34,768 nt of DNA from Jimgerdemannia flammicorona (taxonomy: Eukaryota), in NCBI GenBank assembly GCA_003990765.1, contig RBNJ01000268.1, positions 1 through 34,768 on the forward strand. Direction: 5' to 3'. The position numbers and the translations under genes were made by a program. This document shows positions 2,199 to 34,090 of this stretch, in pieces (position 1 is the first letter of the stretch; the number at the start of each line of letters is the position of its first letter). The notes beneath the pieces are model-generated. The model ran no database searches, was not told the DNA's origin, and was given only the letters and a program-made list of their open reading frames with translations.

Positions 2199-2201
2199 AG
2201 T

Positions 2202-6512: not shown

Positions 6513-6737
6513 AAAAATCCTCGACTGTCCACCCTTGACTGTCCACCCTTTCAAAATCCTCGACTGTCCACCCTTTCAAAATCCTCGACTGTCCACCCTT
6601 TCAAAATCCTCGACTGTCCACCCTTTCAAAATCCTCGACTGTCCACCCTTTAAAAATCCTCGACTGTCCACCCTTTAAAATCCTCGGCTGTCCACCCTTT
6701 AAAAATCCTCGACTGTACACCCTTTAAAAATCCTCGA
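6513..6737. repeat. 25-bp minisatellite (AAAATCCTCGACTGTCCACCCTTT(C/A)), ~9 copies
   Basis: Near-identical tandem units are directly visible, with one partial internal duplication at ~6537-6551 and no spacers. Confidence 0.95.
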
Positions 6738-9650: not shown

Positions 9651-9706
<56 letters not shown>

Positions 9707-12492
9707 GTTCGCATGTGTCTCGCCTAACCTTCGGAGAAACGGGTGAATGTGCAACATCTATTAACTCTGATCAATATTGCACATCCAACAACAAGCTTGC
9801 GACGGAAGAACCACTCTGTCTCGACCCATCTATTCAGGTGACGCGGGTGAGCAACGCCATTAATTACAAGAACTCTCCGCAGCCGTCGAAGAGGAAGCGC
9901 AAGTGGAATTCGACGGAAAGGGAAGAGGAGCTGGCGAAGAAGGCGGAGAGCGATAAGTTGATGACCTTGATGGATGAGGTTTGTAGATATAATGGGTTTG
10001 AGCGAAATATGTTTCCGTCCGTTCGTTTTATTACTGGGAAATCGGCAGTGATCAGGAGCTTTGATTACTAAAGACTTAATATTATGTATGGAAACCGAGC
10101 AGAGGGCGCAGCGCCCGTTCCCCTTCCAGCCAAAGTGAGTTATTCTCTCCTTTATATTGGGCCTTTTCCTCTTCTTCATAACCATAGTATTGGTGATTGA
10201 TATTCCTCCACATTACTCGTCTCTAGCTTCAACAAAATTTCTTTCGTCCAAGAGTGGCGAGCAAAACGGCAAAAGCTCGATAATGAGGTCATGCCCGCCG
10301 TGGAATCCAAAAAAGGAAAAGGTTCGTCTTGAAAACGTTCTATGTTTGACGTATTGTTGTGATATTCTTGCGGTATTTAATGATCAGTGCTTATTTTGGG
10401 TAATTATGCACTTCCATACAGGCCGTCGATCCATTGTCGAGCCGCCAGCGTTGCCAGACGGCCGTAAGTGCATCAGGACATTACGGTTCGAGCGGCAGGC
10501 GGATCAGAGTAAGTATAATCCGGCCGTCGGCATTAATTTCGTTAGTGTATGTGGTACTCAAACACCTCTTCAAGGAAATCCTTCAGGAGGCAGTGCAGGA
10601 GGCTGGCACCTAGAGTGCCTTGGATGTGTAGTTGACTCAGAGGCAGGGGGTGATGAGATTGGGACAAATGCTACTGGAAAATAACTCCTGTTAATTGCAT
10701 GTCCTCACAGAGAAGGTGTTCACTGTGCTTAACGTATATATGCTCAATAACGAGTATGACGGCGTACTGCGGACGGGCACCGTTTTCGACACGAGCATCG
10801 ACGGGCATACCATGGAGTACGTTGAAAATTTTGCATTAAGCACCATACTACAGGTTCCTGATGGCTGTTATTCACATGCTGAATCTATGCATGTTTTTAT
10901 AGATTCAAAATTGGGCCGGAGTACGTCGTGGAGACATTTGTGGCGCACTTTAAGAATTTCTACATGGTTGACAATAAGTTGATCTGTGATAACAACCCAG
11001 CCGCACCAGTTCCTCGGCCACCATCAATGGCAGCGCGCCTTGACGCCACGCAACAACAGATCAATATGACACGCGCGTTGGTCGCTCAACAGCAGCAGGC
11101 GCAACAGGGGCAGCTCTCGCAATCGCAACTTTCGCAATCGCAGCTTACGCAACCGCAGCTCGCGCAAGCACAGCTCTCACAGCCACAGCTTGCGCAAGCG
11201 CAACTCACACAACCGCAGCTCGCCCAAACTCAAATTTCCCAACCGCAGCTCGCTCAACCCCAAAACGCCCAATCGCAATCCGCGCAACCGCAGAACGCGC
11301 CAGTGGTTACTCAGCAGATACAGCAGCAACCCCAGAACCCAGCGCATACGCAACCCATCCCACAGATCGTGCCACAGATAAGCCAACCGCCGCAGATCCA
11401 ACCCGTTCAAGCGGCCATCCCCCTAGCGTCGCAAGGCCCGGCGAATAACGCGCCCACAAGCATCGCGTCCGTGAACGCCAACGTCCTGCAGGGAATGAGC
11501 GTCCCCATGTCCATCGCGACTCCAGGCGTTACCATCATACCCAACAACGTGCTGGGGGCTAACATAGCACCCAACATCACGCTGGCTTCGCCGCGACCCA
11601 CCGCAACCGGCCAACCGGGTAACCCGTTGGTGCAGTTAGGGTATAACCAACTGTTTACTTTTGCCGGATTACCGCATTTACAGCCACAGCGGTCTCCGCA
11701 GCCGAACCAGCTCAGAGTGAGTTTTATATATCTTTCTGGTTTGATCGACGCGCAATCATATTATGTATGGCGATCTTACATTGGACCGATCTATTACGTC
11801 CTTAAGAGTCCATTAAACAACGGCATGCAATTCGCTGGAGTTGGAGGCTCCTTACCTGTACATAGTCAAGGTAATGGATACACATGTATTATTGATATAT
11901 TTCCTTGTAAAATTCAATTATCGGGAGCGAAATTGACCTCGATATACCATCCTTCACAACAGCAGCCATGTTACATGCCGTTCAGCAAGTAGCAAATCCC
12001 CAGCATATAGCATTACTGCGTAGACAGCTCCAACAACAGCAAGCAGGCGCAGGACAGCTCCAAGTTCCTGTCTCCAATATCAATGGTCCGCAAATTGCTC
12101 TGCCATCCAATATGGCCAACCTGACACCCCACCACCAACAGCTACTCCAGCAGCAGCAGCACTACATGCGTGGCCGTGCTCGTAGTATCAACGTGCAACC
12201 GTTTACATCCCAGCAGCAGCAGCAACAGATGCAAGGGTTCATGAGGGGCGGCGCTGCGGGGATGAGCCTGGGGGTCGGGAGGGGTCTGGCGGCCGTCGGG
12301 AGGGGCCGTGGCACACCGTCGTTGATGGGCGGGGTCAACGCATCGTTGGCAGGGATGGTGTCGGCGCCCGTTCCGGGGATGCCGTTGGGGATGATGCCGC
12401 AGGTACCACAAAACATCAATCCGAACGTGGCCGCGGCGACGATCAACGCGACGATTGGGAACCAGAATAATGCGCCGTCGGGGGATATGTGA
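8388..12492 (+). CDS. SPT20: SAGA complex subunit Spt20 (SEP domain + Q/P-rich C-terminus), ~14 exons
   Basis: Exons ~8388-8603, 8768-8807, 8914-8993, 9081-9113, 9211-9295, 9432-9637, 9796-9978 etc. splice to PPSLVLHLYPTYFKFEHQDGFFSY...FLKFVKEQRLPPDLVDVF...YYDGCLIVEIHDHR...RIVLRPTAETLWTDL...LEVEAKILLATEEPLCLDP, the Spt20 signature. The 3' exon boundaries are less certain. Confidence 0.92.
9653..9703. repeat. Poly(T) tract (~50 nt) in SPT20 intron
   Basis: Homopolymer between the GTAATC donor (~9638) and the AAG acceptor (~9795). Confidence 0.9.
11110..11300 (+). repeat. Coding 15-bp repeat (QL[S/T/A]Q[S/P/A] pentapeptides) in Spt20
   Basis: QLSQSQLSQSQLTQPQLAQAQLSQPQLAQAQLTQPQLAQT... in ORF 10928..11992. 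Confidence 0.85.
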
Positions 12493-13015
12493 AGGTCGGG
12501 TGAGTTGGTGGAGAGGAAAAGTTGAATGTGGGAAGTGTTGGTGGTTTACCCGTCTGCTTTTCTGTCTACTTAACTCCTGTTAATATGTACATATTACATC
12601 GCATACATTTGTTGCCTTTCTGTTTTCCCATGTTTTTCAATTAATCCATTGGCTTTTTTCTTCTTTCTTTCTTCTTTTCTCTTTTCTTTTTTTAATTTTG
12701 ATATTTCGTGGTCTACCGCTAGGGTAAATGCGTAGGTAGTTTTGTTTTTGTTTTGTTTTTGCGATAAATTTCATTGATGTGTGGACGTTTTATAGCTTAC
12801 GCTCCCACATGGTTTATTGGACACGTTCAGTATTGCCTCTTTTCGTATTCTTCCAATAATGGTTTAGCTTTTGTATCTCCAATTGAAATTATATTAGCAA
12901 CACGATCACAACGCGTGGTGGTCGACTCGATTGATGACGTAATAGCATGAAATGTAATGGCGGCAAAGAATAAAGATATAATTATACGAGACTAGACAGA
13001 CAAGGTCTTCTTTCG

Positions 13016-13016
<1 letters not shown>

Positions 13017-13056
<40 letters not shown>

Positions 13057-13062
13057 TTTTTT

Positions 13063-13096
<34 letters not shown>
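13017..13096. repeat. Interrupted poly(T) tract (~80 nt)
   Basis: T-runs broken by two G's, located at the edge of the gene island. Confidence 0.9.
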
Positions 13097-13097
<1 letters not shown>

Positions 13098-13646
13098 GTG
13101 GTTGTGGAGCTAACCCGTTTTTCTATTTCTGTTTACTAATATTGGATGACTGATAAAGGATTCATCGTTCTTAGACTGGAAGTTTGTTACTAATTATAGA
13201 ATTTTATTTATTATTTTTTAACTGAGACTTTGTCTTCAGTATTTCTTTTTATTTCTAAGATTCTTTTAGTTCTTTCAGATTTTATATAAATATTTTCTTT
13301 GTTCTCTTAAATAAAGTTTAGAATATTCTCTTTTAAAATTCTTTTAAGAATATGTATTTAAATTTAAAATAGTTAGTAATTATAATAATAAGCTTTCTTA
13401 GAATACTTATATTATTAAGAAACTTAATATATATAGTTTAAGAAGTCTTTTTAATAAATTGAATTAAATCAAATACTAATTTAATTTAAAATTAATTCAA
13501 ATACATCTGTAATAAGAATTACATAGCGAACGGCGTCACGTGACCCGTCGATACCGTCACCATGCGACATGCGAACAAGACGAACGAGACGAGCAAACGA
13601 GACGAACGCGGAAAACGAGATACCAAACCCCCTGAATACTAGAGCC

Positions 13647-13962: not shown

Positions 13963-14467
13963 ATCCAGATCAACTCAGATAGGATTTGAATCCCCATCTA
14001 GATGGATTCGAATCAACGATTGTTTTGATTTCCAAATTAGACAATTAACATCAATAACTTGATAAATAATCATCCAAATTTGATAATCTTAGTGTCATTT
14101 AAAAGCTCTTAATAAGGCCCTTCTAATGATATCAAGAACATTAAAATCGGATTGCACATTGCTAAGATATTAAGGAAAATGTTCTGTTTGATGAAATTTC
14201 CAAAATTAGCAAATCAATAATTTTCCAAATTGGCAATTCAGATGTTTTCCTTGATAACTCAGCAATGCATAATCTGATTTCAATATTCTTGGTATCATTA
14301 GAAAGACCTTATTAAGGGCTTTCAAATGACACCAAGATCATCAAATTTGGATGATTATTCATCAAGTTATTGATGTAAACATTTAATTGTTTAATTTGGA
14401 AATCAAAACAATTGTTGATTCAAATCCATCCAGATGGGATTTGAATTTCATTTAAGTTGATCTGGAT
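13963..14467. mobile_element. Foldback/MITE-like element with ~220-bp imperfect inverted arms
   Basis: 13963-~14185 is the reverse complement of ~14240-14467 (ATCCAGATCAACT...AGTTGATCTGGAT), with a ~55-bp spacer and no ORF. Confidence 0.75.
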
Positions 14468-14749
14468 GAGATTCAATCTGAATTAATTTGAACTTTAAGT
14501 TACTTTAATATTTCTAACTAAACTTCAGAAGTCTAGCTAACTTTTACCAGAACTAAGAACTGATATATAAATCTAAAAAGGAAACCTCTTTGAACCTAAA
14601 TTATAAGAGATTCAGTCTGTTTATAGCAAGAACAAGTCTTTTAGAATTATAATTACTAAAGAAGAGTAATATCTTTATTTTACTATAAAGAAATAGTATT
14701 TTCTTAATCTTAATAAATACTACTAAGTAAAAGAATAATTGAAAGACTT

Positions 14750-15215
14750 TATAAGAGGGTTGCTTTTTAGGGTAACTATTACATAGTTCTGGAGGGTTTT
14801 CTGGAAGTTTTGGATATTCTGGAAGACTGTTTTCTTATGATCAGGATCAATTTTATATAGAGTATGTCCTCTATACTTATTGATTTCTAGATTGGATTAA
14901 TGTCTCAACTAAAGTCCTTTTTTCAGACTAGTTCTGGATGTTCAGGATTTTCCATATTTCAGGAAGTTAAAAAAACTAAGACTAGCTTAGTTGAATTGGT
15001 GTATCACTGCAGACAATACCCAATTAAGAAATTTCACGATTGGGTTAGAAGTGGGACCTAATGGGGAGTGGATTTACTTAAGAGTGATTTGTGGATTATT
15101 AAATAGATTTATTCACTATTCATGATATTGCTATACTAGGAGTAGTTGTATGAAGGGATATTGTGGGAAAGTGCTCAGAAGTTATATTCAGATTATTCAA
15201 GTATTCAAGTCTGTT
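14750..15215 (-). repeat. Family B LTR fragment (R-U5 end)
   Basis: Aligns with 23427-~23885 and 31447-~31910. The terminal TGTAAG has decayed to TATAAG, and no PBS is adjacent. Confidence 0.85.
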
Positions 15216-16328: not shown

Positions 16329-17367
16329 AATACTAACTCAAGGACAACACTATCTATTATAAGGATAGATTGTATGTTCCAAACAACTGAGACCTCCAAA
16401 GAACTATCCTATTTGAATGTCATGATGCCCCTATAGCTGGATATTTAGGATTTGACAAATACTATAAAGTTATTTCCCGAAACTTCTATTGGCCCCATAT
16501 GGCAGATCAGCTCAAGACCTACATTACTTCCTGTGATGCCTGCCAATGGAACAAGTCCTCAACACTAGCAAAACCTGACTTACTCTACCCTATCTCAGTA
16601 CCATCTGCTAATTGAGAACAAATCTCTATGGACTTCATTGTATAACTACTCTGAACCAAGAATAGGAAAGATGCAATTGTTATCTTTGTAAACTATCTCA
16701 GTAAACAAGCCCACTTTATATCAACTACCACCACTACAATAGTACTAGATATAGCTACACTCTTGTTTAATAACATCTTCTGCTATCATAGTCTTCCTAA
16801 GATCATTGTTAGTGACTAAGATCCAAAATTCACCAGCCATTTTTGGAAAGCCCTCTATGTACACCTTGGAATGAAACTTGCACTATCCACAGCCTTTCAC
16901 CCTGAAACTGATGACCAAACTGAAAGAATGGACTGAACTCTAGAACAAATGCTAAGAAACTATGTTTCCCACAGACAAGATGATTGGTATGAACACCTCA
17001 CTGCAGTTAAGTTTACCTATAATAATAGCAAGCAAGTCTCTCTTGGAATGACCTCATTCTTTGCCAATACTGGACAAAACCTAAACACCTCTTTGACACT
17101 CATCCAAACTACTGAAGAACTCTCCACAGTCGAAGCTATTGAAGAATTCTTACTCCGAATATGTAATCTAAGCCAGATTGCAATTGAGAATTTATCACGA
17201 GCTCAAGAACAACAGTCACAGTATGTTAACCAATACTGCCAAGAAGAAACCTTTAATATTGGAGAAAAAGTTCTACTAGACATCTGAGAATACTAAGTTG
17301 ACAACCTCAAAGCTGAACAGCAAGTTCATTGGACTATTTGAAGTTATTATACAAATCTCTCTGACCT
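16329..17367 (+). pseudogene. Family B integrase fragment (heavily mutated)
   Basis: HHCC region (CHDAP..G...CDACQ), ISMDFI and FHPETD motifs. Aligns with ~25660-26715 and is interrupted by the LTR at 17368. Confidence 0.9.
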
Positions 17368-19632
17368 TGTAAGCACACAACCTCTAAGCCACCAAAATTG
17401 TATAGCATCCTCAGCACTAATTTGGAAACCACATGCGAGACTACAAAACAAGTTACTGAAGAGATCATCTGGTTACATGAAATATGCCAGCAAGTATAAG
17501 AACCCACCATCAAGATATAAGAATACTAGAAGAAGTACTATAACCACAAGACTGACTCCAAATCACTATAACTAGTTTGGTGTACTGTACTATTACAAAA
17601 GGAAACTGAAAGTATCAAACTCAAATTGAGACAAGAAGAATCCTATCTCATCTACCAAAAGGTTCACAAATTGTACTTATCAACTCAAGACCAAGATATA
17701 CTGTGACTATACAAGACCTCATTACTTAGCAGAAGTAAAATGCATTTGAACAACTCTGTTTACTCTATCTGTGTTATCTCCATTAGAGAGTGACAGATGC
17801 TTCATCTGAACTCAAGAAAGCTGACATCATCGAAACCAATCTCAAACCATCCATGTGATAGATATTACTACTAGAAATTGCCTCGGATTACAGAAAATAT
17901 TATTTCCAAGAGGTTTGAACCACCAGCCATGATATTGGGAGTCCTCGCCCTAGACAAGAATGGCCAGTCCTCACAAATGCACCAGCAGACTAAAAAAAAA
18001 AGAGAACCAAGACCTGTTATCCTTGTGCAACCACTGCCACCAAGGACAGCCTTAATCTTGTAAGAGATAGAAGTAACGGCACCTTGAAACTAATGATATC
18101 AGAAGTCAGAAAACTACTCAGACTTTGCCAGAGATAATGTCATTAATAGTGATATCATCAAAGACTACCCAGACAGTGTCTAAACCTATAAATAGCTTAG
18201 CAGTCATAGTATAGTTAGATTAGCCTTATACGATGTGACTGTGAACTGACTCAGCAGTCAGATGATCTCTTGATATGTCAGATTACTCTTGTACTATGTG
18301 ACTGCATTCCAACTCAGTAAGATACTAAGTACTATAATCTATATCTAGTATAGTACAGATAGCCCCTCACTAGTATAAATACCCCCTCCCCCAGACCTCA
18401 GAATTACAGACCTGAATAATCTGAACACAACTCCTAAGCACTTTCTACAATATTCCTTTACACAACTACTCCTAGTATAGTAATATCATGAATAGCAAAT
18501 AAACCTATTTAATAACCCACAAACTACTCTTAAGTAAATCCACTCTCCATTAGATTCCATTCCTAACCCTATCACGAAATTTCCTAATTGGGTATTGTCT
18601 GCAGCAATACACCAATTCAACTAAGCTGGTCTTAATTTCTTGAACTTCCTGAAATATGGAAAATTCTGAACATCCAGAACTAGTCTGAAAAAGGACTTTG
18701 GTTGAGACATCAACCCGATCTTGAAATCAATAAGCATAAAGGATGTACTCTATATGAAATTGATCTTGACCTTAAGAAAACAGTTTTCCAGAATATTCAG
18801 AACTTCCAGAAAACCCTTCCAGAACTATGTAACAGTTATCCTAAAAAAGCAATCCTCTTACAACTTGGTAGCAGCAGTTTATAATCTAATTCCACTTCAA
18901 GATGCTTCCTCACCCTACTACAAACCCTTCTGAGAATTCCTACAAGTTGATATAAAGCCCAACCTCTGAACTGGAATTTATCTAAACCATCTGACAATCT
19001 GGAGAGAATTGAACCTGATGTATAAGGACAATTTGATCTCCATATCTGCAACAAGTGGGACAAACTTCATTCAAAGAAAGAAATACTCCAGTTAAATCAG
19101 TAAATAGGTGAAATTCTATTCACTGAACTCCTTGCTCTATACCTAGCAAGTCAAGATGAAGAAGGTCTTATAGAAGCCTTCTTTACTCTTCTCAACAAGA
19201 GTTTTTGTCAGCTTCACAAATCTGAGTGACCTAGGATAACCAGCAGCAGTCTTTTTAGCCTTAGTTCCTCATGAAGCCCAAGTCTCTGTAGCTAAGTGGC
19301 TCAACTCTACTGACTTTTACTACACCAGGACCAAGATCACATTATACTACCAATTCCAGAACAGCAAGGCCCACCATATTCTTAAAGAAGAAGCAAGAGA
19401 AACCCTTCATCAACTACCTGACTCTGAACCAGAAGCAGGCCCAGCTACAGCTCTACCTGAACCAGAAACCAATACCAAACCAGAACTGACTTTAAATTAA
19501 GTCCATCTGAAATCAGATATACAACTGATTCTGTCTACTTTGACACTGAGCAAACCCAATTACACAGGGACCAAACTGAAGAAGAGGAGGAGTATCTCAG
19601 TGAATTCGATCCTGGATACACTACTGAAGGGA
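17368..19632 (+). mobile_element. Truncated family B copy: 5' LTR (17368-18862), PBS and gag leader
   Basis: TGTAAG...CTTACA LTR of ~1495 bp with no PPT before it (it is inserted into the integrase), PBS at 18866. Inverted match to ~22660-24925. Confidence 0.88.
18866..18877 (+). promoter_or_regulatory. PBS (tRNA-iMet type)
   Basis: TGGTAGCAGCAG lies 3 nt after the LTR end. The other copies read TGGTAGCAGTGG and TGGTAGCAGCAG, implying ancestral TGGTAGCAGCGG, similar to the eukaryotic iMet 3' complement TGGTAGC... Confidence 0.75.
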
Positions 19633-19633
19633 C

Positions 19634-22600
19634 ACAGATAAAGCGAACAGAGTTGTTCAAATGCGTTTTGCTTCTACTAAGTAATGAGGTCTTGTATAGT
19701 CATGGTATATCTTGGTCTTGAGTTGATAAGTACAGTTCGTGACCTTTTGATGGGTGAGATAGGGTTCTTCTTGTCTTGATTTGAGTTTGGTACTTTTGGC
19801 TTCTTTGTAATAGTACAGTACACCAAACTAGCTATAGCGGTTCAGAGTCAGTCTTATGGTTGTAGTACTTCTTCTAGTATTCTTGTATCTTGGCAGTGGG
19901 TTCTTGTGCTTGCTGGCATATTTGTGTAACCAGATGATCTCTTCGGTAACTTGTTTTGTAGTCTCGCATGTGGTTTCCAAATTAGTTCTGAGGATACCAT
20001 GCGATTTTAGTGGCTTGGAGGTTGTGCGCTTACAACTCTCCCCTTCTTAGCTTTCGACGTCCTCATCAGGGTCTTCTAATTTGTTCTAGTGTTATTGTAC
20101 CATTTGGATGGTTCTTGTGGCTATTTTTGTTGAGGATTTGTTCAACCTTGTATTCTTCTTGGTCATTAATAATGACAGGTGCAGGTGGTTCTGTGGTTCG
20201 GTTTGGGAATGTGTCTCGGACCTTCTGGAGTAGTGGTCTGACATGGCTGTCAACTTTGGAAAAATCTTCTTCAGAGTTCTTGGGTTCTCCTTTGGATGGT
20301 CAGATGGAGATAGTAAAGAGAGGGCATTTCTTGGCCAATTTCTTGAGTTGTAGCTTATTGATGTGGGTGATCTTTGGTCCAGGGTCACTAGAGTTGAGTG
20401 GGTCCTTTTTGCCTTGTAGTTTGAAGTTGTGGCGTCCTTTCTTGATGGTCAGGGAATGGTTTACCCAATCAATCATGGAGTTCTCTTGTTTTAACCATGG
20501 AGTCCCAAGGATGATTTCATTGTCAGGAAGTGGTACGATTTGGAGGGTAACATGTACTCGGTAGTCGCCAATTCGGAAGGGTAGATTGCAGACTTCTTTG
20601 CTAATAACATGCGAGGTTCCATCAGCTGTAGCAACTGCTTGAGTTTGCTGTACTGGGGAGGTGAAGACCTTGAGTCTGTTTGCTGTCTCTTCATTGATGA
20701 AGTTGCCTGAGGCACCACTGTCTATCATAATCTTGACAGGTGCTCCATTGACAAAAGCTTTAAGGGTGAGCAGTTTGTCTGATCCAATTGTGGTGATTTC
20801 GGTTGTAGGAGCCTTTCTTCTGTTGGTTCTTCTTTGAGCCAATTCGTTGACACAAGAGAAGCAATCATCAATCATTCGGGAAGAGTACATTTCAATACCA
20901 TGAGGGCATCGGCCACTTGGTACATATCCATCTTCTATCTTCTTGTAGAATTGTTCTTCTTTGCTTACAGTAGGTTGGGCTGGGGCCTTGTTTGATGAGC
21001 CAAATCCTTTGGATCCTCAGATGGTGGGTAGTAGTTCAGGGACTTCCTTGACTGTCAGGGTTGACTCAATTTTTTCGAATAGGATCTGGGCGATGCAGAA
21101 GCCAATAGGGATCTTGAAGGGTGTCCAACTGTGGTTTCAAATGAGGACAATAATTTCGCCTGTATAATCTTCGTCAATGATTTCTCCTTCTACTGAAAGT
21201 CCTTTCAGTGCTAGGCTGCTGCGACAGCATATTCTTCCAACATGTCCTTCAGGGATTTGGATACTGATTCCTGTATAGACTTGTTTGACTTCTCGGTTGG
21301 AAACTGTAGCTTCTTCGGCTGCATACAGGTCATATCCAGCTGCTTTTTGACTTCCTTTGGTTGGGGCCTTAGTAGTTTGTCTTAACTTGACAAAGTCTAG
21401 TATTTTGGTGGTCAGGTTGTTGAGGTGGTGCAGAGTAGTAACAGTTGCTCGTGTTGCTGTTCGGGGTTTTTGGTTGGGGCAGACACTGGCCATGTGTCCT
21501 GTCTTTCGGCAATAGAAGCATGCTCCACTTCTTCGAAGTTCATTCCTTTCGCCTTCAGTGAGTTTCTTGAAGGTACTCAGCTGGGTGGGTTCATGATTTC
21601 TGGGTGTCCACGAGGTGGATGTGGAGGGAGCTTGGGATGCTTCATGTTTGGGTTCTTCTTTCTTAGTCCAAGTCTTTTCCTTGTTATTGAATTGCCTTCG
21701 GGACAGAATTGGTCCAGTTGTTAGGATTCGCTTGACCATAGTCTTGATTCTTGCCAGGCACTATTGTTGGTGATTGCAACCAACTGGGCAGCCTTGTTCT
21801 CGGATTTTTCTAGTAAGCCATTCAGGCAGGGCATCGAATAAATGGTCTGCTCTTGTACCATTTCGTGCTTCATCATTGGCAATGTATCCTAGGCCAACAG
21901 TGTTCAGGAGTGACTTGAGTTTTGTACAGAAGGTTTCGAATTCTTCTTTGCCATGTACATCAAATTTGAGGTTGCAGAGTTTTACTTGAGATTCAGCAAT
22001 CATGGTCTTGCTGCGATATTGTGCAATCATGAGTTGTTTGAGTCCAGGGGCTGCAGGATGGGCTCCATATCCTGGGGCATTGTTTGCTGCATTCTGAGCA
22101 ACTACTGCAGGTCGGATATCCCATGTGAGGGGTTTTTCAGGAAGCGTTCGCCACCATTCTTCGGCAGGTCCTCGGAAGAATGTAACAACTCGGTGGACAT
22201 AGGCTGTAGTCATAGCAAAGAGTTGTTCCAGGGTGTAGTCTTGATTATTTGTCAGAACGCGGTCAGCAACTCGCTCATTGGTCCATTGATTGGCTTCAAA
22301 GTTGGTGTCAACTATACTAATGAAGCTTTGGACTTCTTGTGCAGTACCATTGAAGGTAGGTAGGCTCAGATTTTTGGTAGGTTGGGTCTGTTCAGCTAAG
22401 GTAGTAATGGTTGCTGCCATTATAGCCACTTGGGCTGTGAGGTCTAGAATCTGTTGGTTCGCCATGTTGTTTACTAGAGGTGGCTGGACTGCTGGTAGTG
22501 GTGTTACTGGTACTACTTGAGGTACTGGTACAGAGTGTGATGGGGTTCTTTGGGTCTGTGTAAGTTGCTGGAGTAGTAGTTGTGGATCTGGAGTGAGGGC

Positions 22601-24925
22601 TTGATAGATAGCTGTTTGTTGCTGTGTAGGTGTATTCTGTCCTGATGGATGTGTGTCTCCTTTGGTGGTGTATCCGGAATCGAATTCAGTGAGATACTCC
22701 TCCTCTTCTTTGGTTTGGTCCCCATGTAATTGGGTTTGCTCGGCGTCAAAGTAGACAGAATCAGTTGTATATCTGATTTCAGATGGACTTAATTCAAAGT
22801 TGAGTTCAGGTTTGGTATTGGTTTCAGATTCAGGTAGGGTTGTAGTAGGGCCTGCTTCAGGTTTAGGATCAGGTAGTTGATGAAGGGTTTCTCTTGCTTC
22901 TTCCTTAAGAATATAGCAGGCCTTGCTGTTCTGGAATCAGTAGTATAAGGCGGTCTTGGTCCTGGTGCAGTGAAAGTCGGTAGAGTTGAGCCACTTGGCT
23001 ACAGAGGCTTGGGCTTTGTGAGGAACTAAGGCTAGAAAAACTGCTGCTGGTTGTCCTAGGTCACTCGGATTTGTGGAGCTGACAAAACTCTTATTGAGAA
23101 GAGTAAAGAAGGCTTCAATAAGACCTTCTTCGTCTTGACTTGCTGGGTGTAGTGCAAGGAGTTCGGTGAATAGGGTTTCACCTATTTGCTGGTTTAACTT
23201 GAGTACTTCTTTCTTTGAATGAAGTTTATCCCACTTGTTGCAGGTGTGGAGGTCAAATTGTCCTTGTACGTCAGGTTCAATTCTCTCCAGATTGTCAGAT
23301 TGTTCAGATAAATTCCAGTTCAGAGGTTGGGCTTTATACCAACTTGTAGGAATTCACAGAAGGGTTTGTAGCGGGGTGAGGAAGCGTCTTGAAGCGGAAT
23401 TGGATTGAAAACCACTGCTACCAAGTTGTAAGAGGGTTACTTTTTAGAGTAGCTGTTACGTAGTTCTAGAAGGTTTTCTGAAAGTTCTGAATATTCTGGA
23501 AGACCGTTTTCTTATGGTCAAGATCAATTTTGTATAGAGTACATCCTCTATGCTTATTGATTTCAAGATCGGGTTGATGTCTCAACCAAAGTCCTTTTCC
23601 GGACTAGTTCTGGATGTTCAGGATTTTCCGTATTTCAGGAAGTTTAAGAAACTAAGACCAGCTTAGTTGAATTGGCGTATCACTGCAGACAATACCCAAT
23701 TAGGAAATTTCGTGATGGGGTTAGGAGTAGGACCTAACAGGGAGCGGATTTACTTAAGAGTGGTTTGTGAGTTATGGAATAGGTTTATTTGCTATTCATG
23801 ATATTGCTATACTAGGAGTACTTGTGTAAAGGGGTATTGTGGGGAAGTGCTCAGGAGTTGTGTTCGGATTGTTCAAGTCTGTTTGAGTCTGAGATTCTGA
23901 GGTCTGGGGGAGGGGGTATTTATACTAGTGAGGGGCTATCTAGACTATGCTAGATATGGATGTAGCACTAAGTGCCTTGCTGAGTCGGAATGCAGTCATG
24001 TAGTACAAGTGTGATCTGACATGTCAAGAGATCATTTGACTGCTGAGTCAGTTCACAGTTACATCATACAAGGCTAATCTAACTATACTATAACTGCTAG
24101 ACTATTTATAGGTTTAGGTACTGTCTGGTTAGTCTTTGATGACATCACTATTGATGACATCATCACTGGCAAAGTCTGAGCAGTTTTCTGACTTCTGACA
24201 TCATCAGTTTTCAAGATATCGTCACTTCTATCTCTTGTAAGATTAAGACTGTCCTTGGTGGCGGTGGTTGTACAAGGATAACAGGTCTTGGTTCTCTTTT
24301 TTTTTGGTCTGCTGGCACATTTGCGAGGACTGGCCATTCTCGTCTAGGGCGAGGGCTCCCAATATCACGGCTGGGGGTTCGAACCTCTCGGAAATGATAT
24401 TTTCTGTAATCCGAGGCAATTTCTAGTAGTAATATCTGTCACATGGATGGCTTGAGATTGGTTTCGATGTTGTCGGCTTTCTTGAGTTCAGATGAAGTGT
24501 CTGTCACTCTCCAACGGAGGTGATACAGATAAAGCGAACAGAGTTGTTCAAATGCGTTTTGCTTCTACTAAGTAATGAGGTCTTGTATAGTCATGGTATA
24601 TCTTGGTCTTGAGTTGATAAGTACAGTTCGTGACCTTTTGATGGGTGAGATAGGGTTCTTCTTGTCTTGATTTGAGTTTGGTACTTTTGGCTTCTTTGTA
24701 ATAGTACAGTACACCAAACTAGCTATAGCGGTTCAGAGTCAGTCTTATGGTTGTAGTACTTCTTCTAGTATTCTTGTATCTTGGCGGTGGGTTCTCGTGC
24801 TTGCTGGCATATTTGTGTAACCAGATGATCTCTTCGGTAACTTGTTTTATAGTCTCGCATGTGGTTTCCAAATTAGTTCTGAGGATACCATGCGATTTTA
24901 GTGGCTTGGAGGTTGTGCGCTTACA
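19634..24925 (-). mobile_element. Young non-autonomous family B copy: 5' LTR 23427-24925, PBS, Gag-dUTPase-PR, PPT, truncated 3' LTR 19634-20034
   Basis: The LTRs differ at only ~3 of ~400 shared bp. PBS at 23412-23423, PPT AAGAAGGGGAGAG at 20036-20048. RT, RNase H and integrase are deleted. Confidence 0.9.
20090..22465 (-). pseudogene. Gag-zinc knuckle-dUTPase-protease polyprotein fused to a chromodomain stub
   Basis: ORFs 21761..22465, 21137..21739 and 20300..20890 are in the same frame, separated by single TAG/TGA stops. Motifs: CFYCRKTGHMASVC; dUTPase AAGYDL, RSSL, IIDEDYTGEI, IAQI, (R)GSKGFGSS; protease IMIDSGASGNF. Confidence 0.9.
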
Positions 24926-25339
24926 CATTTGATCCTGATTAGTAAGATTCTGTTTGTGTATATCTTGTGTTCTGTGACTTTGTATTGACTCAGCTTTGTG
25001 TGCTGTAACTTCAGTTTGACTCAGCTTTGTGATCAAGCAGGTGATTTTCAGATTTGTTCAGAGGTCGTATGTGATTTCAGTGGCTTGTTCAGAGGGTGAT
25101 GTGTAATTTCGGTGGCTTGGAGGTTGTGTGCTTACAACTCTCCCCTTCTTAGCTTTCGACATCCTCGTTGGAGCTTTCTAATTTTATTCAGTAGTACAGG
25201 GAAAATAGGCTTGCTTTCAGTTTTGCTATTTTCCAGAGGGTCAGTATTCTTGTCTTGTTTTGCTGAGTTCTTGGTTTGGTTTGCAATAATTATAATGTCT
25301 GGAAGGATAATATATAGTATGTATGGATAGGTGTGGAGT

Positions 25340-28300
25340 ATTTGGTTCTAGTTGTTCAAGGAATCATATTCCTGAACTAGGTCGGTAGCATTCTGGAGAT
25401 TGGTCTTGGGTTCCCAGGTTGCATTGTGGATCAGGTAACCTTTCTATTTGACAAGGTACTCAGGGTGGCTCTTATTACTATATTTGTTGAGGATTTGTTC
25501 AACTTCATACTCTTCTTGATCATTAATAATGACAGGTGCAGGTGGTTTGGTGGTCCAGTTTGGAAATAGCTTGTCATCATTCTCATTATATCACTTGAGA
25601 CGTTGAACATTAAAGACTGGGTGAATCTTAATGGTGTCCAGTAGTACCAATTTGTAGAAGGTTGGAGAGACTTGTGCAATAACTTCAAATGGTCCAATAA
25701 ACTTACTGTTCAGCTTTGTAGATGGTCTGTGCTTGAGGTTGTCAACTCAGTATCCTCTGATGTCCAGTAGAACTTTTTCTCCAATATCAAAGGTTTCTTC
25801 TCAGTGGTATTGGTTAACATACTGTGATTGTTATTCTTGAGCTCATGATAAATTCTTGATTGCGATCTGGCTTAGATTGTGCATTCAAAGTAGGAATTCT
25901 TCAACAGCTTCGACTATAGAGAGTTCTTCAGTGGTTTGGATAAGTGTCAAAGGGGTGTTTGGGTTTTGTCCAGTGTTGGTGAAGAATAGGGTCATTCCAA
26001 GAGAGGCTTACTTACTATTGTTATAGGTAAACTCAACTGCAGTGAGGTGTTCATGCCAATCATCTTGTCTGTAGGAAACATAGTTCCTTAGCATTTATTC
26101 CAGAGTTCAGTTCATTCTTTCAGTTTGGCCATCAGTTTCTGGGTAAAAGGCTATAGATAGTACAAGTTTTGTTCCAAGGTGTATATGGAGGGCTTTCCAA
26201 AAATGGCTGGTAAATTTTGGGTCTCGGTCACTAACAATGATCTTGGGAAGACCATGATAGTAGAAGATGTTGTCAAACAAGAGTGTGGCTATGTCTGGTG
26301 CTATTGCAGTAGTGGTAGTAGGCACAAAGTGGGCTTGTTTGCTGAGATAGTCCACAAAGACAACAATTGCATCTTTCCCATTCTTAGTTCAGGGTAGTTG
26401 TACTATGAAGTCCATAGAGATTTGTTCCCAATTCACAGATAGTACTGGGATAGAGTGAAGTAAGCCAGGTTTTGCTAGTGTTGAGGACTTGTTTCATTGG
26501 CAGGCATCACAGGAAGTAATGTAGGTTTTGAGCTGATCTGCCATGCAGGGCCAATAGAAGTTTCGGGAGATAACTTCATAACATTTATCAAATCCTAAAT
26601 GTCCAGCTGTAGGGGCATCATGATATTCAAATAGGATAGTCCTTCAGAGGTCTCAGTTGTTTGGAACATACAGTCTGTCTTTATAGTAGATAGCATTGTC
26701 CTTCAGTTGGTATTGATGATACTGTGTATGCTTGTCAGTATCATCACTATTTAGGATTTCTCACAGTGTTTGAGCTTCCTTATCATTGGCATGTGCTGTG
26801 ATAATTTGTTCTATGATAGAGTTTATAACCAAGGTGAGAGTTTGGATAACCTCTTCGATTAGTGGTCTGGATATTGTATCAGCAACAATATTTTCCTTAC
26901 CAGAGTGGTACTAGATTTCATAGTCAAAGTTGGTGAGGACTTTCATCCATCTGGCTTGCTTTTGAGAAAGGGTAGTCTGTGTCTTGATATTGACTAATGA
27001 TTTGTGGTCAGTCAATATGGTGAAGTGTGCTCCTTCTAGGTAGGGTTGCCATTTGATCAGAGTATCTATGATGGCTAGCATTTCCTTCTTGTGGGTTACA
27101 TAGTTAATTTCAGCATCATTGAACTTGTGGGAGTGATAGGCCACAGGGTGTCCTTCTTGCATGGGTACTGCTCCAAGGGCTAGGTCAGAGGCATCAGTGG
27201 TAACTTCATATGACAGTGTAGGATTTGCCGCTTGAAGTACTGGAGTAGTTATCAGGGTATCCTTTAGTGCTTGAAAGGCGATATCTTGCTCAGGTCCCCA
27301 AGTTACAAGATTGTAGAAGTCTTTTTCTTGTTTTATGGTCCAGGGTTGTTCTTATTTCTTGCTATGCTTGGTCATTTAGATGAGGGTGGTAGCAATTTTA
27401 GTAAAGTTGGCAACAAATTACCTGTAATAGTTTGCTAATCCCAGGAATGACTAGAGGTATTTCAGTTTCTTGGGTCTGGGCCAATCCTTGATTGCAGAGA
27501 TTTTGCTAAGGTCCACTTTGATTCCATTTGGAGTGACAATGTGTCCAAGGAATTGAATTTCTTTTAGGAGAAATTCGCACTTGCTGAGTTTTGCAAAGAG
27601 TCAGTTTTCTCAGAGTTTCAGTAGTACTAGTTCAAGGTATTCAAGATGTTCCTCCAGGGTTTTGCTGAAGACTAGGATGTCATCAATGTAGACAACAACG
27701 AATTTGTCCAGATATGGATGCAGAATGGTATTCATCAGTATCTGGAAGGTTGCTGGAGCATTAGTTAAGCCAAAGGGCATAACCAGGAACTCGAAGTATC
27801 CATAGCGAGTTTGGAAAGCTGTCTTGTAGATGTCTTCTTCTTTCATAACAATTTGCCAATAGCCATTTCGCAGGTCAAAAGAGCTCATGAATTGTGGGTT
27901 GGTAAGTCTATCAAATATTTCATCGATCCTTAGTAGTAGACAATAGTTCTTGATGGTCTGTTCATTGAGATTGCAGTAGTTAATACATATTCGCAGGTCT
28001 CCTCCTTTTTTGACAACAAAGAGGACTGGTGCGCCATAGGGTGATACACTGGGTCTGATGAATTCTTGTTCTAGGAGTTTATCAATTTCTTTCTTGAGTA
28101 CATCAATTTCTCTCAGAGACATATGGTAGATTGACTTGAAGGCTGGTTTGGTATCTGGAATAGTCTTGATGGCATAGTCTACCACTCGTTTAGGAGGTAG
28201 GCCTTTTGGGAGTTTCTTTGGGAATATGTCTCGAAATTTCTGGAGTAGTGGTCTGATATGGCTGTCAACTTTGGAAAAATCTTCTTCAGAGTTCTCAGGT

Positions 28301-30484
28301 TCTCCTTTGGATGGGCAGATGGAGATGGTGAAGAGAGGACATTTCTTGGCCAATTTCTTAAGTTGTAGCTTATTGATGTAGGTGATCTTTGGTCCAGGGT
28401 CACCAGAATTAAGTGGGTCCTTTTCGTCTTGCAGTTTGAAGTTGTGGCATCCTTTCTTGATGGTCAGAGAATGGTTTATCCAATCGATCATAGGGTTCTC
28501 TTGTTTTAACCATAGAGTCCCAAGGATGATTTCATTGTCAGGAAGTGGTACAATTTGGAGGGTAATATGTACTCAGTAGTCACCAATTTGGAAGAGTAGA
28601 TTGTGGACTTCTTTGCTAATAACATGTGAGGTTCCATCAGCTATAGCAACTGCTTGAGTTTGCTATACTGGAGAGGTGAAGACCTTGAGTCTGTTGGCTG
28701 TCTCTTTATTGATGAAGTTGCCTGAGGCACCACTGTCTATCATAATCTTAACAGGTGCTCAGTTGACAAAAGCCTTAAGTGTGAGCAGTTTGTCTGATCC
28801 AATGGTAGTAATTTCAGTTGTAGGAGCTTTCCTTCTATTGGTTCTTCTTTGTGCTAGTTCATTGACACAAGAGAAGCAATCATCAATCATTTGGGAAGAG
28901 TACATTTCAATGTCATGAGAGCATTGGCCACTTGATACATATCCATCTTCAATCTTCTTATAGAATTGTTCTTCTTTGCTCATGGTAGGTTGGGCTGGGG
29001 CCTTGTTTGATGAGCCAAATTCTTTGGATCCTCAGATGGTGGGCAGTAGTTCAGGGACTTTCTTGACTGTCAGAGTTGACTCGATTTTTTCGAATAGGAT
29101 CTGGGTGATGCAGAAACCAATAGGGATCTTGAAGGGTATCTAACTATGGTTTTGGATAAGAACAATAATTTTGCCTGTGTAATCCTTGTCAATGACTCCT
29201 CCTTCTACTAAGAGTCCTTTCAATGCTAGGCTGCTGTGACAGTATATTCTTCCAACATATCCTTCAGGGATTTGGATGCTGATTCCTGTATAGACTTGTT
29301 TGACTTCTCGGTTGGAAACTGTAGCTTCTTCGGCTGCATACAAGTCATATCCAGCTGCTTTCTGACTTCCTTTGATTGGGGCCTTAGCAGTTTGTCTTAA
29401 CTTGACAAAGTCCAGTGTTCTGGTAGTCAGGTTGTTGAGGTGGTACAGAGTGGTAACAGTTGCTTGTGTTGCTGTTCGGGGTTTTTGGTTAGGGCAGGCA
29501 CTGGCCATGTGTCCTGTCTTTCAGCAATAGAAGTATGTTCTGCTTCTTTGAAGTTCATTCCTTTCACCTTCAGTAAGTTTCTTGAAGGTACTTGGCTGAG
29601 TAGGTTTATGATATCTAGGTGTCCAAGAGGTGGATGTGGAGGGAGCTCAGAATACTTCATGCTTAGGTTCTTCCTTCTTGGTCCAAGTCTTTTCCTTGTT
29701 GTTGAATTGTCTTCAGGGCAGAATTGGTCCAGCTATTAGGATTCGCTTGACCATAGTCTTGATTCTTACCAGGTATGTACCATTGTTGGTGATCACACCC
29801 AACTGGGCAGCCTTGTTCTCAGATTTTTCTAGTAAGCCATTCAGGCAGGGCATCAAATAAATGGTCTGCTCTTGTACCATTTCGTGCTTCATCATTGGCA
29901 ATATATCCTAGGCCAACAGTGTTCAAGAGTGACTCAAGTTTTGTACAGAAGGTTTCGAATTCTTCTTTGCCATATACATCAAATTTGAGGTTATGCAGTT
30001 TTACTCAGAATTTGGCAATCATGGTTTCACTGTGATATTGAGCAATCATGAGTTGTTTGAGTCCAGGGGCTGCAGGATGGGCTCCATATCCCAGGGCATT
30101 GTTTGCTATATTCTGGGCAACTACTGCAGGTTGGGTATCCCATGTGAGGAATTTTTCAGGAAGGGTTCACCACCATTCTTTGGCAGGTCCTCAGAAAAAT
30201 GTAACAACTTGGCAGACATAGGCTGTAGTAGTAGCAAAGAGTTGTTCCAGAGTGTGGTCTTGATTGTTTGTCAGAGTGTGGTCAGCAACTTGCTCATTGG
30301 TCCATTGATTGGCTTTGAAGTTGGTATCAACTATACTAATGAAGCTTTGGACTTCTTGTGCAGTACCATTGAAGGTAGGTAGGCTTAGATTTTTGGTAGG
30401 TCTGGTCTGTTCAGCTAAGGCAGTAATGGTTGCTGCTATTATGACTACCTGGGCTGTAAGGTCTAGAATCTGTTAGTTCACCAT
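25340..30484 (-). pseudogene. gag-dUTPase-PR-RT-RNase H-integrase-chromodomain polyprotein with many stops and frameshifts
   Basis: RT: KTAF...[23 protein letters not shown] (27610..28491). RNase H: TDASD...PVAYHS...EMLAI...ILTDHKSL. Integrase: IVSDRDPKFTS...YPETDGQTER. Chromodomain: EEYEVEQIL...YLVK.KGY...ATWEP (~25360-25520). dUTPase at ~29010-29415. Confidence 0.93.
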
Positions 30485-32133
30485 ATTGTTTACTGGAGGT
30501 GGTTGGACTGCTGGTAGTGGTGTTACTGGTACTACTTGAGGTACTGGTGCAGAGTGTGATGGAGTTCTTTGGGTCTGTGTAAGTTACTGGAGTAGTAGTT
30601 GTGGGTCTGGAGTAAGGGCTTGATAGATAACTGTTTGTTGCTGTGTAGGTATATTCTGTCCTGATGGAGGTACTTCTCCTTCGGTGATATATCTGGGATC
30701 GAATTTACTGAGATACTCCTCCTCTTCTTTGGTTTGGTCCCTATGTAATTGGGTTTGCTCAGTATCAAAGTTGATAGAATCAGTTGTATATCTAATTTCA
30801 GATGGACTTAATTCAAAGTTAAGTTCAGGTTCAGTATTGGTTTCAGATTCAGAGAGGGCTGTAGCAGGGCCTGCTTCAGGTTCAGGGTCAGGTAGTTGAT
30901 GAAGAGTTTCTCTTGCTTCTTCTTTAAGAATATGGTGGGTCTTGCTATTCTGGAATTAATAGTATAATGCGGTCTTGGTCCTGGTATGGTGAAAGTCGGT
31001 AGAGTTGAGCCACTTGGCTACAGAGGCTTGGGCTTTGTGAGAAACTAAGGCTAGAAAGACTGCTGCTGGTTATCCTAGGTTGCTTGGATTTGTGGAGCTG
31101 ACAAAACTCTTGTTGAGAAGAGTAAAGAAGGCTTCAATAAGACCTTCTTCATCTTAACTTGCTGGGTGTAGTGCAAGGAGTTCAGCAAATAGGGTTTCAC
31201 CTATTTGTTGGTTTAATTGGAGTACTTCTTTTTTTAAATGAAGTTTGTCCCACTTGTTGCAGGTGTGGAGGTCAAATTGTCCTTGTATGTCAGGTTCAAT
31301 TCTCTCTAGATTGTCAGATGGTTCAGGATAAATTCCAGTTCAGAGGTTGGGCTTTATACCAACTTGTAGGAATTCTCAGAAGGGTTTATAGTGGGGTGAG
31401 GAAGCATCTTGAAGTGGAATTGTATTGAAAACTGCTGCTACCAAGTTGTAAGAGAGTTGCTATTTAAGGTAACTGTTACATAGTTCTGAAAGAGTTTTCT
31501 GGAAGTTCTAGATGTTCTGGAAGACTGTTTTCTTATGGTCAAGATCAATTTCATATGGAGTACATCCTCTACACTTATTGATTTCAATATCGGGTTGACA
31601 TCTCAACCAAAGTCCTTTTCTCAGACTAGTTCTGGGTGTTCAGGATTTTTCATATTTCAGGAAGTTCAAGAAACTAAGACCAGCTTAGTTGAATTGGCAT
31701 ATCACTGCAGACAATACCCAAGTAGGAATTTTCATGATAGAGTTAGGAGTGGGACCTAACAGGGAGTAGATTTACTTAAGAGTGGTTTGTGGGTTATTAA
31801 ATAAGTTTATTCACTATTCATGATATTGCTATACTAGGAGTTGTTGTGTAAAGGGATATTGTGGAAAAGTGCTCAGGAGTTGTGTTCAGAATGTTCAAGT
31901 ATTCAAGTCTGAGATTCTGAGGTCTGGGGGAGGAGATATTTATACTAGTGAGAGGCTATCTGGACTATGCTTGATATGGATGTAGTACTAAGTACTTTGC
32001 TAAGTCAGAATGCAGTCATGTAGTACAAGTGTGATCTGATATATCAAGAGATCATCTGACTGCTGAGTCAGTTCACAGTTACATTGTATAAGGCTAATCT
32101 AACTATACTATGACTGCTTAGGCTATTTATGGT

Positions 32134-33380
32134 TTAGGTACTGTCTGGGTAGTTCTCGATGACATCACCATCGATTGCATCATCTCTGATGAAGTAGTCA
32201 TCTAGGAAGAGTGGTTCGTGGATTACTTCTCCTTGTTTGCTGAGGTAATAATATATTGGAACTTCATCTCCATTCTACAAGATGGCATCATCAGTCTCAT
32301 ATGCTAAATAAGGTATTGGTGGGCAAAGGAGGGGTACATTGTCTTCACTTTCATCAGATTCACTGTCTGCATACCTTCTGTAGGTTACAGCACTATAAGT
32401 CATGGGGTTATAGTAAGCAGGGGGCTGTGGTTCATGTCACTTATACTCAGGTGGTAGAGTGGTTGGTTCAATCTTGAGGGTTGTCTGGAGGTACAGGTTG
32501 TGTTCTCCAGTTTCTTCATTGTAGTTGAAGTAATTGAGAGTGAAAGCAGGTTGGTATTCATGCCAGTGGTCATTGTCCCAATAAGTCTTGTATGCTGTTA
32601 TGAATTGTTATAAGTTCATCAGCAAGATTGGCAGTGTGATCAGGGTTGGCAGAGATCCTTGGCTAGAGGTCATATCAGCATCAGAGGGATCATTGTCTTC
32701 TGCTTTGTCTTCATCGAAGTGGATTATATCATAGATGTCCTTCATGGTATATCCAACTTGGGGCATTTGCAGGATGTGATCATTGGGGTGTGGGAAGGTT
32801 CTGTCTGTGGTTTTGATGTACTCGAGGTACTTGTGGTTAAGTTCTTGTATCATGTCATCGATTTGGCCATAGGACAGAGTAGCAACCATTTTGGCTGTGG
32901 TAACTCGGAGACAGGGAATAATAATGCTATACTCATAGAAGAGTTCTCGATGTTTGCAGGCAATGAGCTTCTGGTGTTGAGACATCTGGGTTATATCTAT
33001 ATCATAGTGGTGTTCGATCATGTCTTCCAGGAGGTAGCCGATCTGGTAGTAACTTGAGATTTGTCCGATTCAGTGGGCCTCACTAAGCATGTTTAGAGCA
33101 TTCCATCAGGCTTCTACAAAGTAGAGGGGTGCTAGGCTATGGATATTCATGAGGGGCAAAGAGGGTGTGGCTCGGTTGACAATGGCATTTCAAATATCAG
33201 CGCAGATATGGGTATAGATCTCGGTGGTTATGTTTGTGTGTTTTGGAAGTTATAGTTGTTGTTTGTTTTTGGTTCTCTGATTTGATGCATCTCGGTACTC
33301 AGTATATATGTATTTGATCCTGATTGGTAAGATTCTGTTTGTGTAAATCTTGTGTTCTGTGACTTTGTATTGACTCAGCT
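32134..33380 (-). pseudogene. Decayed protein-coding cargo ORF inside U3 of the 2.1-kb LTR
   Basis: The 137-aa ORF 32608..33021 extends upstream in frame through three TGA (CGA-derived) stops and one TAA, and downstream with frameshifts to ...DDAIDGDVIENYPDST*. Confidence 0.6.
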
Positions 33381-34090
33381 TTGTGCACTGTGACTTTGGT
33401 TTGACTCAGCTTCATGATCAAGCAGGTGATTTCCAGATTTGTTCAGAGGTCGCATGTGATTTCAGTGGCTTGTTCAGAGGGTGATGTATAATTTCAGTGG
33501 CTTGGAGGTTGTGCACTTACAAGAGCTGTAGATCCTAAGAAGAGCACAAGATAAAACAGGTCGTGCTGGGGAAATTTAAATAAGTAAAAAGTAGTAGCAG
33601 AAAAAAGCAACCTATATCTACTACTGGCTGCTCCAAAAAGGCTACTATATACATAACTGTGAGGTCTGTGAATTCCAAGGTCTGAAGGGCTGCTGTGAGT
33701 TATTGTCAGAATTCACCCTCATCCCTGCCATTGCTGTCACCATTGCTATTGCCATTGCTATTGCCACTGCCATCACTCCTTTGGCTCTCAATGAGCAGCT
33801 TGTGTGCTGCCCATATAAGAAAGAATCTAACATTGTCAGCAGAGAGTGTATTTCCACCTTAAATACTCCCTCTTTTGATAATCATTACAGGGTGAAAATG
33901 AGTAAACTGGACCAACATATGAATTAAGGGCTGCTGTTTTGTTTGCTTGTGATGCGGCAGGAAAGAACAAAGAAAAAGAATAAAGAAAAGAGAGGGAACA
34001 AAAGAAAAGGGTGATGTCACCAAAGTGCAGCAGGAAAAAAAAAACAAGAGCAAAATAAACAAAAGAAAGAGTGATGTCACCAAAGATTTC

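Follow-up and report, generated by a model that had tools for sequence, protein, structure and literature searches.

C-to-T mutation confined to repeats and led by CpG in a probably Endogonales fungus, a probable scar of transposon methylation

Introduction

Copies of a Ty3/gypsy retroelement on contig RBNJ01000268.1 (positions 1 to 34,768, the whole stretch analysed, hereafter the window) differ mainly by C:G-to-T:A transitions, which raises the question of whether a mutational defence of the type termed RIP (repeat-induced point mutation) acts in this fungus. The initial annotation of the window had described RIP-like CpA-to-TpA hypermutation in an apparently non-Dikarya host. The window comprises a gene island (approximately 3441-13130) flanked on each side by a repeat block; the right block consists of four pieces of one Ty3/gypsy family with a dUTPase, from 14749-15213 to 24927-33522, as recognised by alignments within the window and Pfam matches. 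C:G-to-T:A changes occur on both strands of the repeats, after insertion, in the order CpG >> CpA >= CpC > CpT, while the gene island keeps its CpG. There is thus a real, repeat-confined C-to-T process in this probably Endogonales fungus, and it is not canonical CpA-directed RIP. Its probable source, as discussed below, is methylation of transposons with gradual deamination.

Transitions between repeat copies

The two copies of the integrase region (16329-17310, plus strand, and 25733-26714, minus strand) differ by 110 transitions and six transversions, with 864 identical columns, which bears out the description of their differences as nearly all C-to-T or G-to-A. Nine essentially non-overlapping repeat pairs, covering 6986 columns, contain 641 transitions and 58 transversions. 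C:G-to-T:A transitions, a feature also expected of canonical RIP, are the dominant difference between repeat copies. With majority polarisation among three copies, C-to-T exceeded T-to-C, the reverse change being found at only 23 of 1920 copy-sites. Among 34 stop-bearing codon pairs in four reading frames, 27 are sense versus stop via C-to-T or G-to-A, four have stops in both copies and three involve transversions. Synonymous changes make up 46-65% in gag, protease and the upstream frame, and part of the divergence between elements arose under selection in active lineages.

The C-to-T load is confined to repeated DNA, as judged by CpG composition only. The gene island has 64.3 CpG per kb, the left repeat block 2.4 and the right one 8.2; at each island border the density shifts about 25-fold over 100-200 bp. 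The observed/expected (o/e) ratio of CpG is 0.96 in the island, and its non-coding parts keep CpG as well (o/e 0.75 at 7700-8300 and 1.08 at 12500-13010), with no CpT excess.

Much of what the initial annotation had seen is found again. The quoted motifs are all present (16742/26286, 16715/26321, 16640/26397, foldback 14080/14319, and TATAAG at 14750), as are the TGG-to-TAG stop (TAG at 21761-21763, TGG in the outer copy) and the reciprocal decay of CpG to CA and TG in repeats beside an island that retains it. The quoted pair TTTGTGCC and TTTATATC does exist, but one of its changes is at CpC. The TATAAG at 14750, taken for the end of a long terminal repeat (LTR), is instead the point where an internal fragment, with homology to 23426-23878 and 31446-31911, is truncated.

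Sequence context of the mutations

Over the nine pairs, mismatch per cytosine is highest at CG (192/308, 0.62), followed by CA (242/1015, 0.24), CC (117/717, 0.16) and CT (68/950, 0.07); these counts, like those for the integrase pair and the foldback repeats, did not require an identical next base in both copies. The integrase pair (CpG 23/30, CpA 59/160, CpC 19/104, CpT 8/132) is the most CA-skewed of the coding pairs, and in the pairs assumed to be non-coding CA and CC are close (93/376 and 52/231). When changes were polarised among three copies and old CpG sites were left out, CA (48/534, 0.090) equalled CC (37/435, 0.085; p=0.82), and CT was low but not zero (19/711, p ~1e-6 against CA). 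Polarisation with four copies, which involves partly the same sites, gave CA 15/164, CC 22/164 and CT 9/236. The excess of CpA over CpC and CpT after polarising, on which the initial annotation had staked its proposal, is therefore only half present: CpA exceeds CpT and equals CpC. The composite RIP index likewise speaks against a CpA-to-TpA headline, being -0.11 to -0.68 over the retroelements; it is positive in two of the three AT-rich tracts (0.46 and 1.16, tracts 1 and 2). The idea that CA/TA mismatches descend from hidden CpG sites was rejected, because every route to TA passes through a CpA step and, of the 261 states at former CpG positions, just 14 were TA.

A pyrimidine at position +2 doubles mutation at CA and CC (odds ratio 2.05, p=5e-9) and does so in all nine pairs, the counts for pyrimidine versus purine being 123/383 and 119/632 at CA, and 75/359 and 42/358 at CC. 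The effect was noticed while scanning 32 trinucleotide classes, so that the p value is post hoc, and it replicates across classes and pairs. Selection against stop codons was rejected as its cause because the effect is present in non-coding pairs (odds ratio 1.98, with 2.11 in coding pairs). It is absent at CG (1.09) and CT (0.78), which suggests a second enzyme beside the CG enzyme. Within their classes CAG (45/266) and CCG (8/79) have the lowest rates, as would follow from a preference for CHH over CHG like that in Phycomyces transposons, but the rates at CAA and CCA are equally low, and the split is one of pyrimidine against purine at +2. A 5' T lowers the odds of mutation for CA/CC (0.60) and for CG (0.46), the latter making TCG the least mutated CpG (63/122 versus 129/186 for other NCG). 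Composition gives a divided picture: the CAY/CAR ratio falls from 0.93 in the island to 0.62 in the elements and 0.20 in the tracts, in agreement with the +2 effect, but its CC counterpart rises from 0.95 to 1.17 and 1.67 (16 sites in the tracts), in disagreement with it.

Tempo, strand and AT-rich tracts

CG is the most mutated context in the LTR pairs also. The LTRs of the younger, inner element (19634-20034 and 24525-24925) differ at three of 401 bases (two CpG, one CpA), and this element has the highest CpG o/e among the retroelements, 0.39. The end repeats of the older, outer element (24927-25137 and 33312-33522) differ at 15 positions in 211 bp (nine CpG, four CpA, one CpC and one transversion). 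The load is unequal between copies, the three compared carrying 20, 33 and 51 non-CpG C-to-T changes, the last being the truncated copy at 17368-19636.

Canonical RIP, a premeiotic process that homology triggers and that depends on RID and/or DIM-2, proceeds in bursts of clustered, strand-coordinated mutations within one sexual cycle. No strand runs were detected in the window in any of 17 runs tests (P 0.08-1.0), and the two strands carry non-CpG changes at about equal rates (255/1655 and 145/1054; per-pair p >= 0.058). Tempo and strand data fit gradual decay; many superimposed rounds of a RIP-like process are also compatible with them, because such rounds would erase the runs.

In the three AT-rich tracts the surviving cytosines stand mostly before T (44/63, 46/60 and 76/123), and CC is depleted as strongly as CA. 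None of the tracts has a homologue in the window (scores 34-46, against 30-48 for shuffled sequence). Their composition thus agrees with the proposal that they are end products of the process, and they may represent the end state of decaying repeats.

A probable methylation scar

The most probable explanation is CG methylation together with Dim2-type non-CG methylation of transposons, followed by gradual deamination. Under this model, a DNMT1/DNMT5-type enzyme would methylate transposon heterochromatin densely at CG, and a Dim2-type enzyme, avoiding CT and favouring C-[A/C]-pyrimidine, would methylate it more sparsely at CA and CC. The 5-methylcytosine (5mC) would deaminate over many generations, T:G mismatches becoming fixed, and copies would decay with age until CpT cytosines alone remained, giving AT-rich tracts. 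The rank order of mutation is that of Dim2-dependent methylation in transposable elements (TEs) of Zymoseptoria tritici, reported in the available text as CG 43-61%, CA 10-22%, CC 3-8% and CT <0.01% (PMC8016269), and not that of RIP mutation. Phycomyces blakesleeanus, by the accessible parts of the reports, encodes both DIM2 and DNMT1, methylates TEs at CG and CHH but not CHG (PMC11258239) and carries 5mC on repeats (PMC7862722). The flanking preference of DIM2 is stated to be unresolved in the portion available of PMC11315935. Of the two processes offered by the initial annotation, a repeat-directed defence and non-CpG methylation with deamination, the second fits better, and the confinement of the load to repeats stands.

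Several points weigh against methylation and deamination as the cause. The methylation and the methyltransferases are deduced from the mutation spectrum of the window. In the coding pairs CA (149/639) exceeds CC (65/486), and context rates are blurred because part of the divergence arose under selection. Two of ten dispersion tests gave a mildly uneven result (p=0.033 and 0.039). Methylation and mutation profiles need not match, since in Zymoseptoria, from the available text the sole fungus with a measured mutational effect of Dim2, >98% of C-to-T changes are at CA and CG is spared (PMC8016269). Finally, CpA and CpC mutate at roughly a quarter to two-fifths of the rate of CpG. For passive deamination this is a high proportion if non-CG methylation is no more abundant than in Phycomyces, where the genome-wide values given are CG 3.4% and CHH 0.9% (PMC11258239).

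Alternative explanations

An active RIP-like mutator is unlikely, though it is the strongest competitor. Repeats would be recognised by homology or heterochromatin and mutated from C to T episodically, before meiosis or mitotically, by a Dim2-like methyltransferase acting with a deaminase or by a mutagenic methyltransferase, with a C-[A/C]-pyrimidine target superimposed on ordinary CpG decay. Such a mutator would account for the distinct +2 motif at CA and CC, for non-CpG C-to-T rates 3-8 times the reverse rate at these sites (0.085-0.090 versus 0.012), for the halt of the load at repeat borders and for the positive composite indices of tracts 1 and 2. It also has precedents, as DIM-2 of Neurospora can mediate RIP without RID (10.1101/115501) and Dim2 of Zymoseptoria drives a mitotic mutator (PMC8016269). 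According to the available sections of the same reports, however, both of these mutators are strongly CpA-specific, while here polarised CpC equals CpA and CpG leads. Moreover, the 401-bp direct repeat formed by the inner LTRs, 4.9 kb apart and well suited to RIP if judged by the criteria for Neurospora quoted in PMC3318451, has acquired only three changes, and the strand runs are missing, with the reservation made above about superimposed rounds. That a repeat-killing mutator with the target (not T)-C-[A/C]-pyrimidine acts separately from CpG decay and independently of RID is somewhat more doubtful still.

Editing or error during retrotransposition, by a cytidine deaminase acting on cDNA or through a bias of reverse transcriptase (RT), would suit the fact that most compared sequences are retroelements, which carry a dUTPase. 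It is very improbable in view of the near equality of non-CpG changes on the two strands, and because the two LTRs within an element, like the two arms of a foldback, begin identical and differ by the same spectrum. A genome-wide C-to-T bias visible only where selection is absent appears just as remote. It would draw on the fact that the copies compared are all repeats, but it is at odds with the CpG retained in non-coding island parts and with the abrupt change in CpG density at both borders. A 25-bp tandem array within the island (6508-6737), a short repeat escaping decay, likewise keeps its CpG motif in nine units. The least probable alternative of all, that the host is a misplaced ascomycete with ordinary RID-dependent RIP, draws on the lack of ascomycete Spt20 in the trees described below and on the tolerated basidiomycete-branch grouping, and founders on the Mucorales affinity of Spt20 and on a spectrum that is not CpA-specific.

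Host placement

Of 12 matches to the Spt20 exon of the window, seven are species-named and all seven are Mucorales. The Spt20 exons share 58-62% identity with five of seven Mucorales proteins across 310-360 residues, 54-56% with two others and 46% with one, versus 37-42% with Microbotryomycetes, and no ascomycete Spt20 occurs among the 12 and 29 matches obtained; the non-Dikarya host proposed earlier thus gains support. A 30-row tree groups the window with Mucoromycotina, as sister to Umbelopsis plus Mucorales (Shimodaira-Hasegawa-like approximate likelihood ratio test, SH-aLRT, 99 and 97), the position at which the Endogonales branch off. In a 15-row tree, grouping with Mortierellaceae is rejected (approximately unbiased, AU, test p=0.033) and grouping with a long basidiomycete branch has AU p=0.41. 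Both are quick trees containing neither an Endogonales nor an ascomycete row. The host is probably Mucoromycota-like and Endogonales-like, although the tree alone is not decisive. For a 69-aa Spt20 exon, an ESM Atlas look-up gave nothing but calpain clusters, at 0.90 and with low recognition, and was dismissed as noise.

Organisation of the window

The features are listed in Table 1. The label 'integrase' for 16329-17367 comes from the initial annotation and from the position after RT/RNase H; the sole open reading frame scanned in this remnant (16937-17287) had no Pfam match. The mismatch counts per context are CA 12/33, CC 5/17, CG 7/10 and CT 3/16 in the foldback at 13963-14467, and CA 13/55, CC 9/29, CG 5/6 and CT 8/65 in that at 2201-3234. 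The latter, 1 kb long, sits directly upstream of the gag of the left retroelement and may be part of an LTR or a foldback transposon.

About 4 kb of internal sequence is common to the inner and outer elements, the inner one being 90.5% identical to 28217-32188, and their terminal repeats differ except for a shared first stretch. The inner element has lost RT and integrase, its protease-side sequence being joined to the 3' end (20106-20210 matches 25463-25567). Its left end (19623-19636) has no clean LTR terminus and abuts the truncated copy in a short segment common to both, which suggests a later deletion at microhomology. The frame upstream of gag (22937-23353, minus strand) has no Pfam match and is probably coding, because changes between copies are 13 synonymous to seven non-synonymous. 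Within the outer element's 5' part, a 153-aa acidic open frame (32608-33069, minus strand) also lacks a Pfam match.

The stretch 15213-16330 is G-rich and CpG-free and has a 198-aa Thr/Pro-rich minus-strand frame with neither a Pfam match nor a homologue in the window. The CpG-rich islet at 13515-13625, in an otherwise CpG-free block, carries the palindrome GTCACGTGAC (at about 13535) and is possibly a protein-bound, protected site; TCACGTG is also found at 7711, upstream of Spt20. In the gene island, a gene initially labelled Atg29 lies at 4613-6403 (minus strand), where a Pfam scan of one long frame gave no match. An Rfam search gave no matches.

Table 1. Positions of repeats, control region and other features in the window
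Feature	Position	Strand	Evidence
Second retroelement family remnant (zinc knuckle, protease-like)	170..2141	-	Pfam; CpG o/e 0.07
Left foldback repeat with nested palindromes	2201..3234		35 transitions, 1 transversion
Single-copy gene island, internal control	3441..13130		64.3 CpG/kb; sharp borders near 3450 and 13130
Conserved Spt20 exons, host placement	8913..11038	+	Pfam Spt20_SEP E=4.5e-12
AT-rich tract 1, GC 17%	13150..13510		Surviving C then A/C/G/T = 15/2/2/44
CpG-rich islet, 17 CpG in 111 bp, spared within decayed block	13515..13625		CpG count
Foldback repeat, arms differing mainly by transitions	13963..14467		Two arm segments: 26 transitions, 2 transversions
AT-rich tract 2, GC 23%	14480..14750		Surviving C then A/C/G/T = 10/4/0/46
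Fourth, short internal fragment of the same Ty3/gypsy family	14749..15213	-	87-88% to 23426-23878, 31446-31911, 18399-18863
Integrase-region remnant, Ty3/gypsy element, first copy	16329..17367	+	86.6% to 25655-26714 reverse strand; in-frame stops
Truncated third copy (LTR, 5' region, gag start)	17368..19636	+	88.8% to 22649-24925 reverse strand; most mutated of three compared copies
Inner, younger, non-autonomous element: gag, zinc knuckle, dUTPase, protease, without RT/integrase	19634..24925	-	Pfam dUTPase, zf-CCHC, aspartyl protease
Outer Ty3/gypsy element: gag, dUTPase, protease, RT, integrase region	24927..33522	-	RVT_1 match 27610-28572; alignments
Integrase region of outer element, second copy	25655..26714	-	Alignment to 16329-17367
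AT-rich tract 3, GC 24%	34260..34768		Surviving C then A/C/G/T = 37/10/0/76

Related sequences outside the window

Two public sequencing runs were found, covering the pol region in 3 of 30 and 14 of 30 bins. Contig pieces from them differ from the outer element by transitions in 17 of 17 and 81 of 85 cases. Among the differences listed (40 of 94), 26 have C or G in the window, which gives 14 of 94 available sites for CA, 5/53 for CC, 3/10 for CG and 4/99 for CT.

A protein search with RT yielded one locus from 123 candidate stretches, a metagenome relative (L001, 1-1345) that is 80% identical, has a CpG o/e of 0.13 and contains stop codons. Against the outer copy it differs at CA 60/173, CC 29/108 and CT 32/170, and at CA-context differences it has C 20 times and T 13 times; as it is itself decayed, it is uninformative as an outgroup for the direction of mutation. 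A degenerate pattern from the four-copy region had no matches in metagenome contigs, and none of the 585 candidates from a search with gag proved to be a homologue.

Significance

The literature searched contained no description of this spectrum in Endogonales; its CpG part may already be treated by Bewick 2019 and by Clutterbuck 2017, the title of which reportedly concerns CG deficiency in the TEs of 'some lower fungi'. If the methylation model is true, the sequence preference of an unstudied non-CG methyltransferase is recorded by old transposon copies in a hard-to-culture fungal lineage, and the methylome is predicted to follow CG >> CAY, CCY > CAR, CCR > CT. Dim2-type methylation could then erode repeats to AT-rich relics without RIP, which would explain why Endogonales were scored as lacking RIP in a kingdom-wide k-mer screen despite heavily mutated repeats. 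In that screen, by Badet and Croll, RIP-like signatures are reported in the available text from Ascomycota only, and Jimgerdemannia flammicorona and Endogone sp. are scored 'no_rip'; the counts used scaffolds >50 kb, and those assemblies are fragmented, with an N50 of ~11 kb (PMC12543289). If instead an active mutator were at work, a RIP-like defence would exist outside Dikarya, either older than Ascomycota or of a second origin from a Dim2-like enzyme, and it would be invisible to screens tuned to CpA-to-TpA.

Comparison with known systems

The published systems are compared here as described in the accessible portions of the reports. Canonical RIP of Neurospora crassa and other Pezizomycotina shares with this window the repeat-confined C:G-to-T:A changes on both strands, the stop codons and the AT-rich end products (PMC3318451, PMC12543289). 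It differs in preferring CpA in both its RID-dependent and DIM-2-dependent branches, very strongly so in the latter (PMC3318451, PMC12543289, 10.1101/115501), whereas here CpG >> CpA >= CpC, the RIP indices over the elements are negative and a close 401-bp repeat is nearly untouched. TpCpG hypermutation in Pucciniomycotina is likewise a context-dependent, CpG-centred C-to-T process in TEs outside Ascomycota, but TCG is hot there (PMC3318451), while in the window it is the coldest CpG and non-CpG contexts are heavily mutated.

The Dim2/Dnmt5 system of Zymoseptoria tritici is similar in its confinement to TEs and in its methylation order, CG > CA > CC >> CT, which is the mutation order found here. 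New mutations in that species, however, are >98% at CA with CG spared (PMC8016269), whereas in the window CG is the most mutated context and CC is near CA; Z. tritici is also a Dothideomycete, and the present host a Mucoromycota-like fungus. Phycomyces blakesleeanus belongs to the same phylum and combines DIM2 and DNMT1 with 5mC on repeats at CG and CHH, but not CHG (PMC11258239, PMC7862722); the data reported there are of methylation, with neither a division into CA, CC and CT nor a +2 preference, whereas the present data are a mutation spectrum from which the enzymes are deduced.

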